From an uncultured virus (IMG/VR IMGVR_UViG_3300025018_000159) (taxonomy: Duplodnaviria; Heunggongvirae; Uroviricota; Caudoviricetes), in the IMG/VR virus record IMGVR_UViG_3300025018_000159: DNA of 20,000 nt. One strand, written 5' to 3'. Shown in pieces: positions 4,273 to 17,539 of this stretch. The notes below the pieces were generated by a model. The model was not told where the DNA came from, ran no database searches, and saw only the letters and a program-made list of their open reading frames with translations. Every line of letters begins with the position of its first letter. The stretch's first letter is position 1. Both the position numbers and the translations under genes were made by a program.

Positions 4273-5204
4273 ACGTTCACCCTTGTTGCTGCAATCACCC
4301 TGCAATTCTCGCTCACGGACATGATGCGGGAGCCGCAGGAGCTTAGGCGAATATCCTGACCGACCCGCGTAGCGAAGTCGATGTTTTTCTTGCTAATCAG
4401 AAAGCTACACTTCCCGATGAATACCTCGCCCAACACCCCCTCCATGTCGTCGCCAATGTAAGTGACACAACCATCCTCAAAACGGAACTTTTCGCACTGG
4501 ATGGCGTGGAGGTCGTCGGCGAGATTCTTGACCAAACCGCAGTCCGTCCACTTGTCCTTGAAGAGGTTCGACGTGTCAATCATCTGCTCTGCGATACAGA
4601 GGCTGGTGAGTGAGCTTCCATCGGCGAAGAACACCTTAACCATGCGCCCGTCAGAACTAACCCCCGTCACCGGGGAGGTGAATTTGACGATTGCCTTGCA
4701 CGTCTCCAGGGGCAGGTTGAACTCCAGATCCTCATCCACACCACTGACGGCACTCACGATGATGACACTGTTTGTGGACTCCATCACCCCGTTTCGGAAA
4801 GACACACCCTGTGCCCATGGGCGAGGACTTTCAGGGTCAATCACGTCAGCACACAGCTTCAGCAGCCCCATGTCCAGTTCGCATGGTGTGGCCTGTCCCA
4901 GCACGTCCAGCGTAGCCATCTCATCCGCATCCAGATACGGGATCGAAAGCTTCTCCTTGCCCTCCTTGAGCACGAGCTTGTTCTTCTGGAGCGTGTAGGA
5001 GACAACCTTCCTGGGCTTGCGGAAAAACACCGCTGCCTTGGATGGGCTGAAGCAGGCTTTGATGTCCACCTCCACCGGAACCCGGATACAGAACGTCCCG
5101 CCGAAAGCGACCATGAAGCCGTCTTCGAGCTTCACCATTGAAGCGGTGGGGGAAGGTGCGGAAGGGTTGAGCGCAAGGGAGCAGAGGGCTAGGGCTGATT
5201 TCAT
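4269..5204 (-). CDS. Putative DNA polymerase beta-clamp-like processivity factor
   Basis: 311 aa, beta-rich and translationally coupled to the polymerase. PESPRPWAQGVSFRNGVMESTNSVIIV resembles the DnaN segment RPxLxGV...ATDG. Confidence 0.55.
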   Translation of the reverse strand: MKSALALCSLALNPSAPSPTASMVKLEDGFMVAFGGTFCIRVPVEVDIKACFSPSKAAVFFRKPRKVVSYTLQKNKLVLKEGKEKLSIPYLDADEMATLDVLGQATPCELDMGLLKLCADVIDPESPRPWAQGVSFRNGVMESTNSVIIVSAVSGVDEDLEFNLPLETCKAIVKFTSPVTGVSSDGRMVKVFFADGSSLTSLCIAEQMIDTSNLFKDKWTDCGLVKNLADDLHAIQCEKFRFEDGCVTYIGDDMEGVLGEVFIGKCSFLISKKNIDFATRVGQDIRLSSCGSRIMSVSENCRVIAATRVNV

Positions 5205-5654: not shown

Positions 5655-7265
5655 TTATTTGTTGAAGTCACACCCAATCACATTGGAGTGCTCTCCGGCG
5701 ATGTCCACGCGGATGATGTCCGGGACACGAAGCTCGTCCTTTGCCCGTGCCGCAGCTTCCTCGCTGGTCTTTGGACAAGGTAGTTCCCCGCCCCTGAATG
5801 TCCACCAGTTTTCCCATCTATTTTTGCCGTAGGGCGCTTCAGGGAAAAGGGCTTCCTTGTGGGAACTCACACCTGTCATATACGTCACCCTGAAGTAGGG
5901 CGCAAGGGTCTTCTTGGCGATCTTTTCCTGGTAGAGGATACCCCGGACAGGGTGCTCGACGATGACGCAGGCGGGGGTGTCCGTGACTTTAAGAATAGCG
6001 TCGGTGCCAGCGGTCTTCTTGATGGTGGATGGAGGGGGGAACACATAACCGCAATCTGGGCACACCACAGTGCGTGTGTGAAGATAGGAGTAGCACTGAG
6101 GACACTCCTTAACTGGAGCCTCACCTTTCACTTCATCCCCCTTGCGCCTTGGCTGGGGAACCACTGGATCATTTACCGGGCCGAGACGGCGGGTATTCCC
6201 AGCAAAGTCAAGAACTAAGCCATCTTTTTTATTAGGTGCTCTTCTAGTTAGACGAACACAGCCTTGAACCCACAGCGCCACAGACTGGGTTGCCCGTGCC
6301 CACGCCAAGAGATCCAGCTCAGGAAAATCCCAACCACGGCCATAGAGGCCGCAGTTCACCAGCACCCTGTATTCCCCGGCACGGAAAGCAGCCTCTGACT
6401 GTTCCCTGAAGCGCATGTCGTCCTCACCGGACAACATGACTGCTGGGATGCCTTTCGAGTTGAAAAGCTTCGCCAACTTGTGGCCGTGCTTCACACCGGA
6501 GCTAAACACGAGCCAATGCTTCCTATCGTGACCGTAGCGGATGCACTCCTCGACCACAGCACGATTCAACTCATCGGTATCAGCTACGGCTTCCAGGGAT
6601 TTCTGATCGAACTCGCCGCCCTTCATGGCGACATTTTGAACGTCGATTTCAGTGCAGGCTTTCTTCGTGACCAGTGGGGAGAGGAAGCCGTTGTTTACAA
6701 ACCAGTTGAACTTCTCCGCCTTTGTCAAGTCGATAATTATCCTGTCCCACAGGTCTGAGTTTGTCAGGCAACCTGTCCCCCTACGATAAGGGGTCGCGGT
6801 AAAGCCAAGAATACGGACATTCGGGTTCAACTCTCTAACAGAACTGACTAGCTTCATGTATAACGTCTCCTCTTTCGGTGAGACCAGATCACACTCGTCG
6901 ATAAAGATCACGTTCCACTTTCCCAGCTCATTGATGCGCTTTGCCACAGACTGGATGCCTGCGAAGATTATGGGGTGTTTGGTGTCCCTGCGGTTGAGGC
7001 CGGAGGAATAGATCCCTGCCGGAGCCTGTGGCCAGAACTTCAGCATGGATTCGCAGTTCTGGTTGATGACCTTGGCGTCATGGACTAAGGAGAGCACGCG
7101 GGTTCCTGGCCACTTGGTGACAAGCTGCTTGATGACGCGATTCATCGTGTGGCTTTTACCTGTGCCACCGGGGGAGGCAACTACACCGTTGCCTGTATGT
7201 TCAAACAAGTGTTCGAAACAGGCGTTGTAGATGTCCTCTTGATATTGTCGGTCTTGATAGCTCAT
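5655..7265 (-). CDS. Superfamily 2 DNA helicase (RadD/YejH-like) with C-terminal Zn finger
   Basis: Q motif RQYQ, motif I SPGGTGKS, motif II IDECD, motif III TATPYR, and LDFAGNTRRLGP followed by CPQC...CPDC. Confidence 0.92.
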   Translation of the reverse strand: MSYQDRQYQEDIYNACFEHLFEHTGNGVVASPGGTGKSHTMNRVIKQLVTKWPGTRVLSLVHDAKVINQNCESMLKFWPQAPAGIYSSGLNRRDTKHPIIFAGIQSVAKRINELGKWNVIFIDECDLVSPKEETLYMKLVSSVRELNPNVRILGFTATPYRRGTGCLTNSDLWDRIIIDLTKAEKFNWFVNNGFLSPLVTKKACTEIDVQNVAMKGGEFDQKSLEAVADTDELNRAVVEECIRYGHDRKHWLVFSSGVKHGHKLAKLFNSKGIPAVMLSGEDDMRFREQSEAAFRAGEYRVLVNCGLYGRGWDFPELDLLAWARATQSVALWVQGCVRLTRRAPNKKDGLVLDFAGNTRRLGPVNDPVVPQPRRKGDEVKGEAPVKECPQCYSYLHTRTVVCPDCGYVFPPPSTIKKTAGTDAILKVTDTPACVIVEHPVRGILYQEKIAKKTLAPYFRVTYMTGVSSHKEALFPEAPYGKNRWENWWTFRGGELPCPKTSEEAAARAKDELRVPDIIRVDIAGEHSNVIGCDFNK

Positions 7266-8904: not shown

Positions 8905-9240
8905 TTGAAAGTGGGAGCACCTTACGGGTGCCAGTCGCCAGTCTTTCCTGAAGTCAGATCTCTCTAAACGCTAGAGCACTGCATCCCCCGTATTTCTACG
9001 GCTGAGGGGCTTCGAACCCCTTCTTTCACCAGATCTCAATCACCGAGCGGGAATCGAACCCGCCTGCTCTTTTATGGTTTTGAACCACACTCGCAGCCAC
9101 CATCCAAGGCGGGGAATCGAACCCCGAACACATCCAATTATGGACGATGACCGCGAGTGTGGTGACAGACTTTAACCCGTCTGTCAGGGGCTGATGACAA
9201 CCCGAATTTCCGGGACTATCGTGTTCAGCGGTTGTCTATT
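8905..9240 (-). ncRNA. Cluster of structured RNA elements with three tRNA T-arms but no complete tRNA
   Basis: T-arms CGGGG-TTCGATT-CCCCG (9110-9126), GCGGG-TTCGATT-CCCGC (9047-9063) and AGGGG-TTCGAAG-CCCCT (9005-9021). A 23-bp stem (9084-9106/9141-9163) has four G-U pairs on the - strand, and further hairpins are present. Confidence 0.7.
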
Positions 9241-11494: not shown

Positions 11495-11903
11495 TGGTGG
11501 AGCTAAGGGGAGTCGAACCCCTGTCCGTAACCGCGTTATTAACATTTTCTACAAGCTTAGACCTTTATGGAGTCACTCAAGGGCGTCCGGTTAGGGACGC
11601 CTCCACCACCCGGTCTTTACGGCGACGGGTTCCGTTGTTTGCCTCACTGTTTCAGGTCATCCGCCCGGAGGCGCGGCTTAGGATGATCTTGCCCGGTTTG
11701 TTTCTCACCGCAGCGCGGGCGTTTCGGTGAGCGTGTTTTGCTTAGGCTACGAGAGCAAGCTCACCCTGAGGTGCGCTGCGTCCGAAGATTCCGCGAATGA
11801 CGTTGATGCCATTTGAACTTTGAGCGGCTTTTTAAGAGGCCAGCCGATCAACCTCTACTTGCTTATGTTAATTTTTCAGTTACGTCGAAACCAGTATAGC
11901 CCC
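11495..11903 (-). ncRNA. ssrA: tmRNA (409 nt)
   Basis: 5' GGGGCTATACTGGTTTCGAC and 3' GGACAGGGGTTCGACTCCCCTTAGCTCCACCA. Acceptor stem GGGGCTA/TAGCTCC has the G3-U alanine identity pair and an encoded CCA. P2 helices CGTAACTG/CGGTTACG and ATTAACAT/ATGTTAAT; pk1 GAGG/CCTC plus CGGCT/AGCCG; tag ORF present. Confidence 0.97.
11742..11810 (-). other. tmRNA tag reading frame: (A)GINVIRGIFGRSAPQGELALVA*
   Basis: Resume codon GGC inferred after pk1 and the TTCAAAT context; the frame ends GCT CTC GTA GCC TAA. Confidence 0.8.
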
Positions 11904-12551: not shown

Positions 12552-12776
12552 ATGTCCGAAAACGCTACAGCAGTCATGCGGAGACTGCGAGAACAAATTT
12601 CCAAGCCCGAGATCAATCTCTTGGCACTGGCACGGGGGAGCAAAGTCAGCTACGACAAGCTGCGCCGTCTGAAGCTTGATGATAGTCCGCTATCTGTCGC
12701 CGACGCAGAAACCCTTCACATCTTCCTAACAGGAAAAACCTTTATCGCCACACCTGATGCTCCACAACATTCCTGA
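12552..12776 (+). CDS. Small helix-turn-helix DNA-binding protein (Cro/XRE-like)
   Basis: INLLALARGSKVSYDKLRRLK has an HTH pattern; sits at the divergence point upstream of the primase. Confidence 0.7.
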   Translation: MSENATAVMRRLREQISKPEINLLALARGSKVSYDKLRRLKLDDSPLSVADAETLHIFLTGKTFIATPDAPQHS

Positions 12777-15027
12777 AGAACTCACCCGCCTTGGCCAATG
12801 GGTTACGTTCGATATTACCGAAGACGGTAAGAAGATCCCGTATATTCCCGGCACGAACGACATGGCCGCTTCCAACCGTCCCCGCGACTGGCGCTCATTC
12901 CGCGCAGCCTGCAAGGATGTCGAGGAAGGCAAACGCCAGCACGTCGGCTTCGTCGTCACCACACGAGACCCCTATGTCTTCATCGACTTGGATGACCCCG
13001 AGGACGAGGATCAGAAAGCTGTCTTCAAGCGCCTCGATACCTACGCCCAGCTCAGTGTCTCCGGCGAGGGTGCCCACCTGATTGCCGTCGGAAAGTTCAA
13101 GGGTAAAGGCAAGCACCCTGCGTCTCCGGCGGCGGGGTTGTTCCAGGATAACAGGTTTGTGCTTATGACCGGGGAAATTCTCCAGAACAGATCTACTATA
13201 AAAGCAGTAGATGACTGCGATCTCCAAAGCATCCACACATGGCTCGGCGGCGGCAAGGACTATGAGCTTGAGGATCTCGTGGAATATGCTTCGAAAATCC
13301 CCGACCAAACGGTGGTCGACCTGGGTTGTGACCGCTTCACCAAATTCAACGATCTCTGCAACGGCAAGTGGCAGCAGTTCGATGAGTATCATGGAGACCA
13401 CAGCACAGCAGACCATGCCTTCCTTGCCATGCTCTGCGACATCACCGAGTCAAACGACCAAGTGCGCTTTCTCTTCTCCATCTCAGGCATGTGGTCTCCT
13501 GAGCGTGCAGCCAAGAAGTCAGGTCACGGACTTGCGGGGTATGTTGACCGGACGATCCGCAAGATCCGGGGAAACCAGCAGCGTGAGCGCCGTTCCCTCG
13601 AAGAGTGCCCCCTATCCTTCGGCGAAAGAAAAGTGTTGACAGAGATCCACCCGGCTACCCCGGAAAAGGGAAAATGCGACCTGATCGAGAGCTTGCCTGA
13701 CGGTCTGGTGAAAGACATCGCACGCTACTCCTTCGAAACCTCCTACATGCCTCTTCAGGAGGCTTCGATCCTCGTGGGCTTGCAGGTTGTCTCCGTGCTC
13801 TGTGGCCGGGGCTACCTGACCCCCACGAAGTCCGGCCTGAACATGTGGCTCATCCTTGTGGGTGGAACATCCTGCGGAAAGGACGAATACCAGAACGGTG
13901 TCAAGCGGATTCTGAACAAGATTGCCAAGTCGCATCCCAGCGTCCTGAAGATCTTCGGCGGAGAGATCGTTTCCGGGCCAGGCATCGAGACTGTGTTCCA
14001 GGATACATTCCGCTACTGCTCATATATCCCTGAGTTCGGCGACACGTTCAAGCTGCTCGCCAACCCACAGGCACCCGATTATGTCAAGACCCTTTCACGC
14101 GGACTCCTCAACTCCTACAACTCGGCTGGTGTCGGCGGCACGAGCGAGGGACGGCGCAAGGCTCAGGGGACAGACGAGAAGGTGCGTGTGGAACGCCCCT
14201 GTCTCTGCGTCGCCGGAGAGGCCACCCCCGAATCACTCTACGGAAACATGACCACGAGGGAGCTGTCCACAGGTTTCCTCCAAAGGTTCATGCTCCTCAA
14301 CGTGCCACTGACCTCGTGGTCGATGATCGAGAACGAGAACCACGGCGCGGAGCCTCCGAAGGCTCTCGTGGATCGTCTGGCGAACCTGGCCATGATGATG
14401 GACTCTGCCGACGTGAGCAACAGCTTCCAGACCGTAGAGTCGTCACCTGAGGCCGCAGATCTCCTGAAGCGTTACCGGAACCACAAGCGGAAGGAAATCA
14501 TGGAGTGCCCTGACGGACTTTCGAAGAAGGAAGTCATCAACCGCGCAGGACTCAAGGCTCTGCGTCTCGCTTCACTTCTGGCTGTCGGTTCCGATGAGCA
14601 CTCCCCCCGCATTGGGCTGGAACACGCCCAGTGGTCAATCGACTTCACTGAGAAATGTGACAACGAGATCCTAGCCAAGTTCGATTCCGGCGAGGTTGGC
14701 TCCGGCCAAGTCAAGCAGGAAAATGAGATAATTCAGGCTTGCAAAAACGTGGCGGCTATGAAAGTCGGGATGAGGCAATCGCTTGGGATGAGCCGGAAGG
14801 TCGCCCTTGAGAGCACAATGGTGCCGCTGGCCGTAATCAAGGCGAAGGTCGTGAACAATGCCGTCTTCGCTTCGGATCGTCTGGGAGCTGTCTCAGCCTT
14901 CGACAAATGCGTGGACTCTATGGTCAAGGCCGGGGTGTTTGTCCGGGTGTCGGAAACCCTCGCAGCAGACAGTTATAACCACCTGAAGGGGGTGTTGCTG
15001 TGCGTGAGTGGGAAGTATCTGAAGTGA
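12757..15027 (+). CDS. Primase-polymerase (AEP/NrS-1-like) fused to a DUF3987-like helicase domain
   Basis: QWVTF, KIPY, FIDLD, SVSGEGAH, helix-bundle motif DHSTADHAF, P-loop GGTSCGKD, GEATPE and GFLQRF. Confidence 0.85.
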   Translation: MLHNIPEELTRLGQWVTFDITEDGKKIPYIPGTNDMAASNRPRDWRSFRAACKDVEEGKRQHVGFVVTTRDPYVFIDLDDPEDEDQKAVFKRLDTYAQLSVSGEGAHLIAVGKFKGKGKHPASPAAGLFQDNRFVLMTGEILQNRSTIKAVDDCDLQSIHTWLGGGKDYELEDLVEYASKIPDQTVVDLGCDRFTKFNDLCNGKWQQFDEYHGDHSTADHAFLAMLCDITESNDQVRFLFSISGMWSPERAAKKSGHGLAGYVDRTIRKIRGNQQRERRSLEECPLSFGERKVLTEIHPATPEKGKCDLIESLPDGLVKDIARYSFETSYMPLQEASILVGLQVVSVLCGRGYLTPTKSGLNMWLILVGGTSCGKDEYQNGVKRILNKIAKSHPSVLKIFGGEIVSGPGIETVFQDTFRYCSYIPEFGDTFKLLANPQAPDYVKTLSRGLLNSYNSAGVGGTSEGRRKAQGTDEKVRVERPCLCVAGEATPESLYGNMTTRELSTGFLQRFMLLNVPLTSWSMIENENHGAEPPKALVDRLANLAMMMDSADVSNSFQTVESSPEAADLLKRYRNHKRKEIMECPDGLSKKEVINRAGLKALRLASLLAVGSDEHSPRIGLEHAQWSIDFTEKCDNEILAKFDSGEVGSGQVKQENEIIQACKNVAAMKVGMRQSLGMSRKVALESTMVPLAVIKAKVVNNAVFASDRLGAVSAFDKCVDSMVKAGVFVRVSETLAADSYNHLKGVLLCVSGKYLK

Positions 15028-15031
15028 GACC

Positions 15032-15053
15032 GGGGCAATAAAAAAAGCCCCCG
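15032..15053. terminator. Probable terminator between convergent transcription units
   Basis: GGGGC...GCCCC hairpin just after the primase stop; on the - strand CGGGGGC is followed by T7 (15046-15040). Confidence 0.5.
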
Positions 15054-15130
15054 AATTACGCATCGTCGAGAGGCGCGGGAGGTCTGCTGGTTTAGTATGC
15101 AGAAAAGCCACGCCTTGACAGGGTGGGGCT

Positions 15131-15182
15131 TCCGAACGGTCGATGCACGGGACGCTATGCGCCTGGGATCTCCTTGTTAGCG
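15131..15182 (+). other. attC-like site E (52 bp, compact/degenerate)
   Basis: TCCGAAC-GGTCG-ATGCACGG...CTGGGAT-CTCCTT-GTTAGCG; imperfect arms. Confidence 0.6.
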
Positions 15183-15301
15183 ACGAGAACATCCTTGTGT
15201 TCGTTGCATCTGGGGCGGTATTCATCATCGCCGCGCATCCAGCTTGTTTGGATTTCCACTTTGCCGACCGCTTTATTCTCGCATAGTTGGCATTTTGGCA
15301 T
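15155..15301 (-). CDS. Cassette ORF, 48 aa CxxC...CxxH putative Zn-binding protein (not in the ORF track)
   Basis: MPKCQLCENKAVGKVEIQTSWMRGDDEYRPRCNEHKDVLVANKEIPGA*; the frame is open for a further 42 codons upstream. Confidence 0.65.
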   Translation of the reverse strand: MPKCQLCENKAVGKVEIQTSWMRGDDEYRPRCNEHKDVLVANKEIPGA

Positions 15302-15385
15302 TCCGTTGGGGTGTCCCTTGTATTTCTGGAATCTGCTGATTCGCGGGTATTTTCGATTACTCCTAGTCTTTAGGTTGTTCGGTTT

Positions 15386-15470
15386 CGCTAATAAATCGCC
15401 GTATCCAACGGCGGCCTGCCCTCTTATTTATTCGGAGTCTTTCGCGCCGTGGATAGGCTCGGCGTTGTGG
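15386..15470 (+). other. attC-like site D (85 bp; AAC changed to AAT in R'')
   Basis: CGCTAAT-AAATC-GCC[G]TATC-CA[A]CGGCG...CGCCGTG-GATAGGC-TCGGC-GTTGTGG; brackets mark unpaired extra bases. Confidence 0.8.
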
Positions 15471-15766
15471 CCAAGAATCGGCACGTATTTGTTGAGCGTG
15501 CGCGTCTCGATTTGGTTGAGCGGTTTCCATTCTGCGAAGTCACCAGCCATCCGGCCTTGCCCTTCGTTATCCAGCTCCCCTTGGAGATCGGACTCCGGAC
15601 ACCATTTCAGCCCGCCATAGCCGATCCACTTCTGGCGGCACTTCGCTACCGCTGGGCGGGGCATCTTGTAGGCGCGGCAGTATTCGGCCAGTTGGTCGAG
15701 CCAGCTTTTATATGAGTCACCGAAAAGCAGGATCGAGCCATCGGGGAAGGTTGCTTTGATTGTCAT
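15428..15766 (-). CDS. Cassette ORF, hypothetical protein (112 aa)
   Basis: Intact ORF inside cassette 15465-15882; its stop lies within attC D. Confidence 0.8.
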   Translation of the reverse strand: MTIKATFPDGSILLFGDSYKSWLDQLAEYCRAYKMPRPAVAKCRQKWIGYGGLKWCPESDLQGELDNEGQGRMAGDFAEWKPLNQIETRTLNKYVPILGHNAEPIHGAKDSE

Positions 15767-15797
15767 TTTATCGGGCGTTTTCGTTGTTTCGTAAGAT

Positions 15798-15888
15798 CCA
15801 CAACAAGCGTCTGGTGGTGACGCCGTTGAAGCATTCTGATTAAATTCGGGGCTCTTTTTCCGGCGTCACCACAGACGGAGCGTTACGC
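15798..15888 (+). other. attC-like site C (91 bp)
   Basis: CCACAAC-AAGCG-TCT[G]GTGG-TGACGCCG...CGGCGTCA-CCACAGA-CGGAGC-GTTACGC. Confidence 0.88.
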
Positions 15889-16241
15889 CTATAAACTCCG
15901 ACGACCATGAAGAGGTCGTGACTCTCGCCAATTTTCATCCCTTCCCATCCAGTCGGCACATGACCGAAAGTTACTTCGTATTCACCTCTCTCGATCCGCA
16001 GCTTTGCGCGGCGTTTCAACTCCTCGGGGGAGTATTGAGCAATCTCGTTTTCCAAGAATTGCACCGCCGCGCCGAGCGTTACATCCCCCTGTCGCACTCG
16101 ATACCTTTCCCTTACTTTTCGGTATCCACGCTCTAGGGCAATTCGCTCAGCGTAACAAGACATCGCACTACAATCCCCACTCGGAGTCTTGGGAGGGGCG
16201 GCGATTTCAGGCGGGGGAGTATCGTTTGTGGTATCAGTCAT
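15840..16241 (-). CDS. Cassette ORF, hypothetical protein (133 aa)
   Basis: ATG 16241 (MTDTTND) lies in the loop of attC B; the stop lies in the loop of attC C. Confidence 0.75.
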   Translation of the reverse strand: MTDTTNDTPPPEIAAPPKTPSGDCSAMSCYAERIALERGYRKVRERYRVRQGDVTLGAAVQFLENEIAQYSPEELKRRAKLRIERGEYEVTFGHVPTGWEGMKIGESHDLFMVVGVYRRNAPSVVTPEKEPRI

Positions 16242-16276
16242 TTTCGTGTGTGGATGTGTGGATTTTATCGTTCGAT
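16150..16276 (+). other. attC-like site B (127 bp)
   Basis: GCGTAAC-AAGAC-ATC[G]CAC[T]ACA[A]TCCCCAC...GTGTGGATGTGTGGAT-TTTATC-GTTCGAT. Confidence 0.8.
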
Positions 16277-16471
16277 TTACCAATCCCAGTCGATGAACTC
16301 AGCCCATGCGTAGGCTTGGATCTTCTCGAACGTGGTTTCCGGCATGACTTCTTTTCCGTCGTATTCGAGGCCGAAGACCCCGTGACAGTAGCGAATAATT
16401 TGAGTGCGCCCGTCGTGCGCTTCCCAGAAGACCTTTCGGCCAGGTGTTTGTCCTTGTAGTTCATTTTTCAT
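16277..16471 (-). CDS. Cassette ORF, hypothetical protein (64 aa)
   Basis: The TAA stop abuts the core of attC B exactly; composition is more protein-like than the overlapping 76-aa frame. Confidence 0.65.
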   Translation of the reverse strand: MKNELQGQTPGRKVFWEAHDGRTQIIRYCHGVFGLEYDGKEVMPETTFEKIQAYAWAEFIDWDW

Positions 16472-16494
16472 CGGTGTTTTGGGGTGATTCGGAA

Positions 16495-16594
16495 ATCGAA
16501 CAAGCGGATCGTGGCGACCCGATCCCGCTCCCCACGGTAGATTTATGTAGGCTTTGAGGGTGCGGGATTGGTCGCCACATCCTTGACGTTCTGC
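16495..16594 (+). other. attC-like site A (100 bp)
   Basis: ATCGAAC-AAGCG-GAT[C]GTGG-CGACC[C]GATCCCGC...GCGGGATTGGTCG-CCACATC-CTTGAC-GTTCTGC; canonical 5-nt and 6-nt spacers and an extra C at position 4 of L''. Confidence 0.9.
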
Positions 16595-16639
16595 TTAAGA
16601 TGTGCCGCGAGGCAGTCCGTGGCGACGGCGAGGAGGCCG

Positions 16640-16807
16640 TCACATTTCAAATCTCTTCACAGAGATAATCTTCGATAGGTGCTGGTAATTCTTCAATTTC
16701 TCCCTAGCCTTCTTGATTGACTTGGCCTGCACTTCAGTTTCCACGGTCTGTCCGTTGCTAAGTGCAACCACACATACCCATGTCACTACTGCGATATTTT
16801 TATCCAT
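16640..16807 (-). CDS. Hypothetical protein (55 aa; not in the ORF track)
   Basis: MDKNIAVVTWVCVVALSNGQTVETEVQAKSIKKAREKLKNYQHLSKIISVKRFEM*; 8-nt overlap with the upstream gene. Confidence 0.7.
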   Translation of the reverse strand: MDKNIAVVTWVCVVALSNGQTVETEVQAKSIKKAREKLKNYQHLSKIISVKRFEM

Positions 16808-17144
16808 GATTCAGGTTTCTGAAATACTCATCCCGCTTTTCCCTGACTTCCTTTTTGGTCTTACCTCTGGCGATCACTCTACCTTTGAAGGTAAACTTGA
16901 ACGGGAGGTCGTAACCAATGTAGCGGTCTGGGTTTTCAGCAGCCTTGCTGGCAGCGGTTTTTTTCCTGCGGACAGGTGCGTTCAGCGAAGCGAAAAACGC
17001 ATCCCTCGCTTTCTCAGCGGCTTTGCCGGAGACCGTGCCGAGGGATTTGCGCCTCTGCTTGTCGTCCACATAGTAGAGGGCGTAGGTGTAGCCGTTGACT
17101 TGGACTAAGGCTGTGCCAAGGGAGGTGTCGGGTATTTCAGTCAT
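16800..17144 (-). CDS. Basic hypothetical protein (114 aa), possibly DNA-binding
   Basis: Start moved to ATG 17144 (MTEIPDT), overlapping the previous stop; two beta-helix-like basic segments (RRKSLG...AEKARD; IARGKTKKEVREKRD). Confidence 0.7.
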   Translation of the reverse strand: MTEIPDTSLGTALVQVNGYTYALYYVDDKQRRKSLGTVSGKAAEKARDAFFASLNAPVRRKKTAASKAAENPDRYIGYDLPFKFTFKGRVIARGKTKKEVREKRDEYFRNLNHG

Positions 17145-17334
17145 GGTTGGGTTTGAGTTTCTTTTTCTGGCATGAAGGGCAGTTGTCCCTGTGGGTGTCG
17201 TTGCCTTCTTCGCGGTCGCCCGCAAGGTAGAGCCAGCGACCACACAGGGATTTGCCACCGCACCCCACGTAATGGAACTTGCTGCGTGGGTTGAGCGGTT
17301 GGGGGTTCCACCATCCTGTAAGTGTGTCACTCAT
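17137..17334 (-). CDS. Small Cys/His-rich hypothetical protein (65 aa)
   Basis: MSDTLTGWW...KFHYV..KSLCGRW...NCPSC; start moved to ATG 17334. Confidence 0.75.
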   Translation of the reverse strand: MSDTLTGWWNPQPLNPRSKFHYVGCGGKSLCGRWLYLAGDREEGNDTHRDNCPSCQKKKLKPNHD

Positions 17335-17539
17335 GCGTGTTGTCGATAAGTTTGATGCCGGAAATGACGGAGAGATTTTTAGAGTAATGTTTTGATTTAA
17401 CGCCTCCATCCTCCCACGGATCAGCCCACGTTTTAAGTTGCATGGTATCTTTTCCTCGATCCACAAAAAGAACGAAAACGCTGTTAATTCCTACAGGAAT
17501 GCGCTCCAGCCGGAGCTTTGGGCGGTTGAAGAGTCTCAT
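17327..17539 (-). CDS. Hypothetical protein (70 aa)
   Basis: Part of the chain of overlapping small - strand genes. Confidence 0.65.
   Translation of the reverse strand: MRLFNRPKLRLERIPVGINSVFVLFVDRGKDTMQLKTWADPWEDGGVKSKHYSKNLSVISGIKLIDNTHE

Follow-up and report, generated by a model that had tools for sequence, protein, structure and literature searches.

The DNA considered here is a stretch of 20,000 nucleotides (nt) from an uncultured virus of the class Caudoviricetes (IMG/VR record IMGVR_UViG_3300025018_000159), referred to below as the window. Between positions 15177 and 16588 lie four integron-type gene cassettes, accompanied by the decayed remains of a fifth site. We hold with considerable confidence that this is an array of cassettes with bottom-strand genes, in which three genes are read across the crossover point AA|C of the recombination site and take a tail and a stop codon from the neighbour. 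As read from the sequence, the predicted genes for proteins of 48, 112 and 133 amino acids (aa) have no stop codon of their own; the minus-strand AAC stands in frame across the crossover, as an asparagine codon, and both tail and stop lie in the adjoining DNA. An earlier note on this DNA, made from the letters alone, had proposed that cassettes borrow C-terminal tails from the next attC site. The proposal stands for the three genes, but a fourth gene, of 64 aa, keeps its own stop. Feature coordinates are collected in Table 1.

Comparison of homologues bears directly on the tails. The earlier note had suggested looking at whether similarity among relatives of the 112- and 133-aa proteins ends at the asparagine with variable tails beyond, and this was borne out for both. 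Of 38 homologues found for the 112-aa protein, 36 were aligned, the two weakest (P0037 and P0038) being left out. The core is conserved up to the asparagine, where at least 20 of the 36 break into unrelated tails; five groups share the same residues before it (ILGHN, REFPLN, PDSRMN, PDSRVN and GWAN) and then continue with unlike tails. The other homologues comprise ten that have their own stop soon past the core, four that are ambiguous, one that diverges earlier and one that is distant. One homologue, P0010, matches over about 70 residues and is then wholly divergent for about 60, and looks frameshifted. Ten viral loci have distant homologues of the 112-aa protein without the present attC family, so the gene family is not confined to these cassettes.

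The 133-aa protein is seen with tails from two contexts. Its homologues are a 137-aa open reading frame (ORF) in a phage contig, L088, and the proteins P0039 and P0040. The sequence is common to the window, L088 and P0039 up to ...VGVYRRN, apart from two or three substitutions among residues 1-120, and the tail is then APSVVTPEKEPRI in the window and ADVEARPHGAPPQQDGF in L088 and P0039. The 48-aa protein and its relatives have cores ending in ...VLVAN, ...VLIAN and ...ILAEN, followed by the tails KEIPGA, ASGEGRRSEDAAITDKGE and VHSNPPP. An AlphaFold model of the 112-aa protein has a confidence score (predicted local distance difference test, pLDDT) of about 90 for residues 1-90, 74 for residues 91-100 and 48-49 for the tail; judged by this model, the borrowed tail is probably disordered. 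A Foldseek search of the model against the PDB returned nothing at an E value of 0.001 or better.

The genes themselves are assigned to the minus strand on codon usage and on substitution pattern. With codon usage trained on the long ORFs of the window, the best of the six frames falls on the minus strand in all four cassettes, in agreement with the earlier note, which had placed every cassette gene there. The best frame is the AAC frame for the 48-aa and 112-aa genes and is not the AAC frame for the 64-aa gene. Over the block shared with L088 (described below), the 133-aa frame is free of stops and its 10 differences divide into seven synonymous and three non-synonymous, while the other five frames contain 1-9 stops each. 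A 72-aa ORF on the + strand of cassette 3 is truncated in L088, with more positions changed, and + strand ORFs of the cassettes are unsupported as genes. The minus strand bears every plausible gene in 15155-16807, as with the genes rightward to 19998. The classical arrangement of a top-strand gene with its own attC behind it is not found here; the own attC lies upstream of the gene.

The five tails quoted in the earlier note read as stated, and the three ORFs said to cross by way of AAC do so. The remnant frame said to cross in the same way is open but probably not a gene. The frame quoted at junction B did not hold as a gene end, since the 64-aa gene has its own TAA before that junction.

Polarity and crossover were tested INDEPENDENTLY by DNA comparison of the window with L088. 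The two have a block in common, positions 15880-16274 of the window (395 nt, 10 differences, 97.5% identity), with unrelated flanks on both sides. At each end identity stops at a minus-strand AAC, on the left against another attC of the family and on the right against another cassette. The block omits the hairpin after the 133-aa gene and contains the hairpin before it, which fits + as the attC top strand and is the opposite of a gene-then-attC cassette. The earlier note had assigned this polarity from the extra bases of the left arm and from the spacers, features that are present at sites A, C and D; the DNA breaks at AAC, on the gene-proximal side of the attC, thus confirm it independently. 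When the window was compared with the contigs L088, L093 and L091 at E 1e-4, nothing else in common was found save a distant polymerase match.

The same block, 15880-16274, is also present in contigs L093 and L094, which carry the same integron as L088. The difference between these two begins exactly at another AAC; L094 has there the end of a second copy of one cassette, which could be a tandem copy, a circular form or an assembly artefact. In contigs of four metagenome runs from an aquifer and a cold spring (X2, X3, X4 and X8) the block has different surroundings, and identity to the window ends at 15880 and at 16272-16274. Three right-hand neighbours occur besides the window's own, one of which is the start of the cassette that adjoins attI in L088. 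Across all genomes and contigs, identity breaks at 15880-15884 and 16270-16274; the crossover is resolved to 0-3 nt because the neighbouring bases are common to both partners. The 97.5% identity of cassette 3 to its copy in an unrelated phage, together with its varied right-hand neighbours, speaks for recent exchange. The reversed layout is also seen in the phage contigs G001, L091 and L093.

Judged by their sequences, sites A, C and D have the structure of genuine attC sites, of which + is the top strand. The single-stranded DNA folds of A and C are strong (z -4.6 and -4.0; none of 200 shuffles as good, + strand). A strict geometry scan asked for AAC, a 5-nt spacer, an arm whose third base pair is followed by one extra base, a partner arm, a further 5-6 nt and GTT. 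It gave three hits per strand in the window, and only A and C have 5-8 further stem pairs, an extension reached in 0 of 200 shuffles. Both A and C are matched by each of two covariance models, R1, built from five sites, and R2. Site D is the best hit of R1 in the window outside the training sites (filters off; 10.8 bits, E 0.44 per 20 kb). Its arms, GCC[G]TATCCA[A]CGGCG and CGCCG-TGGATA-GGC, form a predicted 14-bp stem whose left arm carries two extra bases at a distance of 6 bp; the fold is weak (z -1.4), and the box is AAT...GTT with a G-T wobble, compared with AAC...GTT at A, C and B.

The earlier note counted five attC sites. A, C and D remain as structured sites and B as a junction, but B is unfolded and E is no attC. 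B is the best hit of R2 in the window outside the training sites (filters off; 11.2 bits, E 0.35), and the geometry scan meets it with one mismatch and without the stem extension; despite its poor fold it is a real recombination junction, where four different right-hand neighbours break at 16272-16274. At E there is neither a fold (z +1.6) nor a match by the attC models in the window scan, and its left flank has no likeness to the attI regions of L088 and L091. Homologues of the 48-aa protein diverge exactly after the asparagine encoded at E, which marks E as a true junction, though not an attC. The remnant attC to the right of A has 24 nt that are 96% like the left arm of an attC in IMG/VR record G002 (G002b, E 2e-5). 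An Rfam scan returned no family match at the sites; to our knowledge Rfam holds no attC family.

The sites belong to a family that extends beyond the window. A 15-base pattern from the left arms of A and C, searched in viral contigs, gave 77 loci, a number near that estimated by chance, with only four true sites; R1 then located further sites in the contigs of those loci. Seventeen sites were aligned, taken from the window, from L093 and from the IMG/VR records G001, G002, G003 and G006, the last five being phage or metagenome contigs. The predicted common layout consists of an AAC/GTT box, unpaired spacers, an extra base after 3 bp, a 6-bp stem and an invariant A. The box pairs in 16-17 of the 17 sites. 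The spacers are non-complementary, the left one being 5 nt in all sites and the right one mostly 6 nt (5 in three sites, including D of the window). The extra base after 3 bp is present in 17/17, with variable identity, and is not mostly G on the bottom strand. The invariant top-strand A, a bottom-strand T, lies 6 bp further on and is unpaired in 13 of the 17 sites (bulged in seven, mismatched in six); it is paired to T in three, A and C of the window among them, and unclear in one. Pairing is found in 91.8% of alignment cells, as against 71% in shuffles (0 of 500 reach the observed value) and 32-51% with slid partners, and the L stem has compensatory changes at nine of nine pairs. In length the model hits, each with about 10 nt of flank, range from 87 to 134 nt over the family and from 88 to 130 nt in the window, within the 57-141 bp expected of attC sites. 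As a specificity control, R2 was run on ten other phage loci (51,217 bases) and gave no hits. This layout agrees with published attC rules, by which the bottom strand is cut between A and C of the R' AAC and a conserved bottom-strand T stands among the extra bases (PMC5027507).

Several members of the family merit separate mention. G001 (loci L078-L081), a 64,545-bp record with direct terminal repeats and a complete phage genome, has at least 13 sites, 11 in two internal clusters and two near one end. Two partial attC matches lie at its other end, an IntI-like gene is absent, and most of its cassettes favour bottom-strand genes. At the end of G002 (L084, the same as G004), cassettes of ordinary orientation with the same attC family encode proteins whose ends resemble PEP-CTERM; the region is possibly host integron DNA on the border of a predicted prophage. 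A loop motif, TGATTAAAT, is conserved in attC C (15838-15848), in L084 (1218-1307) and in L093 (530-620). It has stops in two top-strand frames and one bottom-strand frame, and genes of both orientations terminate there. A Mesorhizobium sp. chromosome (L092) has one exact copy of an attC left-arm 20-mer, and weak model hits (15.9 and 13.2 bits at 4951-5027 and 7142-7229) that are either chance or a distant attC-like pair and do not point to a host.

A frame common to the crossing genes emerges from blind scoring of codon usage in the 15 cassettes that have a site at each end (four in the window, nine in G001, one each in G006 and L093). The best frame is the bottom-strand AAC frame in nine, a bottom-strand frame with its own stop in four, and top-strand or unclear in two; in none of the 15 does the best frame cross in another frame. 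In two of the four with their own stop it is a TAA made up of the cassette's final bases (...TAA|C). The reversed layout is frequent and not a rule.

A number of observations weigh against the bottom-strand, read-through interpretation. Counts of bottom-strand ORFs of at least 50 codons that reach R' at 25 sites are less clean than the scored set, 13/5/4 per frame, with R' misplaced at two L081 sites and one degenerate site in the count. A stop in the frame of the asparagine, which the earlier note reported at every site, is literally present throughout the window; as a signal it is weak, with such stops inside 20 of 25 family sites where shuffles lead one to expect 15.3, at most a slight excess. 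Both sites of G002, whose cassettes are in ordinary orientation, are among the five family sites that lack the stop. Ordinary-orientation cassettes with the same attC family occur both in L084 and in cassette X of L093. The genes hand-picked in G001 have no homology support (0 of 9 with PHROG matches). In the window, the R'' of D reads AAT instead of AAC, B is without a fold (z +1.0 to +1.3) and one site is a remnant; the window's own array may be decaying. No IntI was detected in the 20 kb (tblastn best E 0.027; none of 30 ORFs with a recombinase domain). Against TIGR02249 the IntI-like protein of L088 reaches 243.9 bits, under the NCBIfam cut-off of 265. Finally, the junction data are assembled contigs, whose differing arrangements do not imply activity.

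With regard to PHROG matches more widely, at E 0.001 or better none was found for 15 G001 ORFs, the 141-aa ORF of L093 or the 78-aa ORF of L091; a 146-aa ORF of G001 has one weak match, to phrog_4392 (E 0.0025).

Some of these points lend themselves to another explanation, by which the structure is as described but the tails and the shared frame are a neutral by-product: stop-less genes would simply run to a chance stop, and the array would be an immobile fossil. The near-chance frequency of AAC-frame stops, the predicted disorder of the tail and the use of an own stop by about a quarter of the 112-aa homologues are in keeping with this, as are the degenerate D, the unfolded B, the remnant and the missing window integrase. 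It is difficult to reconcile with the use of one of three frames by all nine of the scored crossing genes, or with the five 112-aa groups that share pre-Asn residues and differ in tails. A fossil array does not accord with the recent exchange of the 133-aa cassette, which has at least four right-hand neighbours. We consider this explanation unlikely, although it fares best among the rivals.

A second explanation is that the hairpins are RNA-level elements of the minus-strand transcript (terminators, processing signals or stabilisers) whose likeness to attC is convergent. The hairpins do lie between co-directional genes and fold as either strand, and a role as weak terminators has been put forward for attC sites (PMC8876359). 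However, no T-run follows them and terminator-like sites number four against 4.6 expected; the extra bases are on one arm only, the AAC/GTT box and spacers obey attC rules, the same sites flank an IntI-like gene, and the breaks in genome identity exactly at AAC already contradict this explanation, which is highly improbable. Equally improbable is a misread polarity, with minus as the true top strand and ordinary gene-then-attC cassettes whose stop lies inside the attC: on the minus strand a hairpin with a stop does come after each gene, as in many ordinary cassettes, and two G001 genes end at a TAA inside the box, but the makeup of the L088 block already contradicts it, protein tails diverge right after the asparagine and are not conserved with the gene, the extra bases are on the left arm of the + strand, and the + polarity points away from intI in L088 and L091, as in ordinary integrons.

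With three model-supported sites and B within 1.2 kb and no intI in the 20-kb window, the array has the composition of a CALIN (cluster of attC sites lacking an integron integrase). In L088, L093 and L091 the arrays adjoin a gene for an IntI-like recombinase of 337-341 aa, and the top strands of their attC sites run away from this gene, the usual arrangement in integrons. TIGR02249 (integron integrase) is the best family for the L088 recombinase and is matched over the whole profile. The best solved relative is VchIntIA (2a3v, E 1.6e-39), and residues 186-240, which we take to be the IntI-specific segment, align without long gaps. The region with this gene and a putative attI is at 1188-2713 in L088 and from 1821 onward in L093. 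In L088 the recombinase gene overlaps the small terminase subunit gene by 4 nt, and the integrase thus seems to be a member of a phage packaging operon. The putative attI crossover is at ...CAGCTG|TTGTGTGG, with support from one metagenome contig in which the end of cassette 3 is joined to TTGTGTGG.... A search of species genomes for relatives of this IntI found none. Among 31 metagenome recombinase loci, 28 were set aside as distant (at most 61% identity over short stretches), and a single model search of L095 gave no hit.

By the read-through interpretation, recombination and translation would fit together as follows. As + is the attC top strand, the minus strand is the bottom strand, the one that folds and is cut; an IntI-type enzyme would act on this folded strand and cut between A and C of 5'-AAC-3'. 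Because the genes are on the recombined minus strand, the crossover falls within their last codons. The own attC would stand in front of the gene and may hold its start codon, and the gene would leave its cassette by way of the crossover. The split codon AA|C would be remade as asparagine by the invariant C of whatever comes next, and a short dispensable tail with a stop would come from the next attC, or from flanking DNA at the end of the array. With the asparagine rebuilt and tail and stop borrowed, cassettes could move without breaking the gene. For the window the integrase would have to come in trans, from the host or from a phage infecting the same cell, that of L088 being an example, and the shared frame may be kept by selection. 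Translation into the first hairpin arm may open the attC for the next gene, a step with which a published idea on short ORFs in attC sites accords (PMC8876359).

We infer that the layout is an adaptation, a phage-adapted cassette class. A stronger version is offered tentatively, as possible and no better than that: a phage-borne cassette lineage reversed by design, which couples expression to exchange, is frame-locked and has its hairpin opened by translation. Transcription would leave the bottom strand unpaired as the non-template strand, which could then fold, so that expression and exchange would be coupled; with AA|C locked as an asparagine codon, stop-less genes would stay portable. Phages would thereby run an integron variant of their own and shuffle accessory genes with it.

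Table 1. Positions of genes, recombination sites and cassettes of the array in the 20,000-nt window
Feature	Position	Strand	Remarks
48-aa Cys-rich gene, cassette 1	15155..15301	-	crosses junction E; tail KEIPGA and stop from flanking DNA
112-aa gene, cassette 2	15428..15766	-	phrog_32581; crosses D at Asn100; tail AEPIHGAKDSE and stop in attC D
133-aa gene, cassette 3	15840..16241	-	starts inside own attC (B); crosses C at Asn120
133-aa gene end		-	tail APSVVTPEKEPRI and stop, in loop of attC C
64-aa gene, cassette 4	16277..16471	-	own TAA 16277-16279, 6 nt before junction B; no crossing
35-codon remnant frame	16543..16650	-	crosses A with AAC in frame (NVKDVATNPAPSKPT); support is the open frame; probably not a gene
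attC A	16492..16594	+	AAC 16499-16501; left arm GAT[C]GTGGCGACC...; R' GTT 16588-16590
attC C	15795..15888	+	AAC 15802-15804; left arm TCT[G]GTGGTGACGCCG; R' GTT 15882-15884
attC D	15383..15470	+	R'' degenerate (AAT); R' GTT 15464-15466
attC B	16147..16276	+	long, pairs poorly; R'' GCGTAAC; R' GTT 16270-16272; contains 133-aa start codon
Junction E	15176..15178	+	GTT in GTTAGCG; left end of array; no attC hairpin leftward
Remnant attC	16612..16655	+	left arm and part of loop only; right of A; R1 5.9 bits
Cassette 1	15177..15464	+	288 nt, TT...G; limits are junction E and R' G of attC D
Cassette 2	15465..15882	+	418 nt; limits are R' sites of D and C
Cassette 3	15883..16270	+	388 nt; mobile unit, present in other contexts
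Cassette 4	16271..16588	+	318 nt; limits are R' sites of B and A

The window as a whole is a phage-like replication and accessory region that encodes a family A DNA polymerase, a helicase, PD-(D/E)XK and VRR-NUC nucleases, an exonuclease, an AAA_24 ATPase and a 756-aa DNA primase (phrog_3022, 408 bits). The array lies between the end of the primase gene (15027, + strand) and a series of small minus-strand genes reaching 19998, at the terminus of a leftward operon of small phage genes. A blastn search of positions 12757-17400 against deposited phages gave no match, and no close relatives of the primase or of the 112-aa protein were found in viral contigs. Promoter and terminator scans gave no signal above chance. 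Directly past the primase gene, at 15047-15082 (minus strand), a match to the abiF RNA family (32.8 bits, under the gathering score of 37) is probably a terminator-like hairpin only. A full-length gene for transfer-messenger RNA (tmRNA) is located amid the phage replication genes at 11495-11903 (minus strand; RF00023, 126.7 bits) and is uncalled by ARAGORN. An intergenic gap at 8990-9165 has a 23-nt inverted repeat (9084-9106 and 9141-9163) and, three times over, a motif like GGG(G)AATCGAACCC, which is a tRNA T-arm in reverse complement; neither ARAGORN nor Rfam places a tRNA there.

In textbook integrons promoterless top-strand genes stand before the attC. Here and in several unrelated phage contigs, genes are on the recombined strand, start at or inside their own attC, and have a predicted translation that passes the crossover. 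If this is general, a recombination site has been made compatible with coding through a fixed asparagine codon, and unrelated phage genomes trade small accessory genes in cassette form; surveys that end sequences at attC borders, or take genes to be on the top strand, would then truncate or miss these proteins. The layout also makes it testable which attC strand is exposed in a phage, and when.

Phage attC arrays as such are already known; for the reversed, frame-locked layout no published description was found. In full-text searches of the open literature, and in the main texts of papers so found, no cassette genes on the bottom strand that are read across the crossover were met with. Phage integrons and CALINs have been published, together with a few phage integrases, and IntI1 was able to recombine attC sites of phages in assays (Qi et al., 2023, PMC9892861). 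The likeness to that work is in the integrase-less attC arrays of phage genomes. The typical arrays there have cassettes in the same direction, and the main text does not mention bottom-strand genes or reading across the crossover. For junction E, where a cassette abuts phage DNA at GTT, insertion outside att sites at attG is a candidate (bioRxiv 10.1101/2022.09.11.507474); the abstract of that report makes no mention of gene strand or frames. In classical cassettes a promoterless top-strand gene is expressed from Pc and is followed by the attC (Nivina et al., 2016, PMC5027507). In contrast, the cassettes described here have bottom-strand genes with the attC in front and the gene end in the neighbour, and their first extra base is variable. 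A partial likeness is seen in ORF-11/ORF-18 of attI1, a frame that runs over the crossover and takes its stop from the next inserted cassette (PMC8876359). That frame encodes a short top-strand leader peptide at attI, which aids translation of the first cassette, whereas in the present arrays full-length predicted cassette proteins on the bottom strand are involved, the junctions are those of attC sites, and the crossover itself is read as asparagine.

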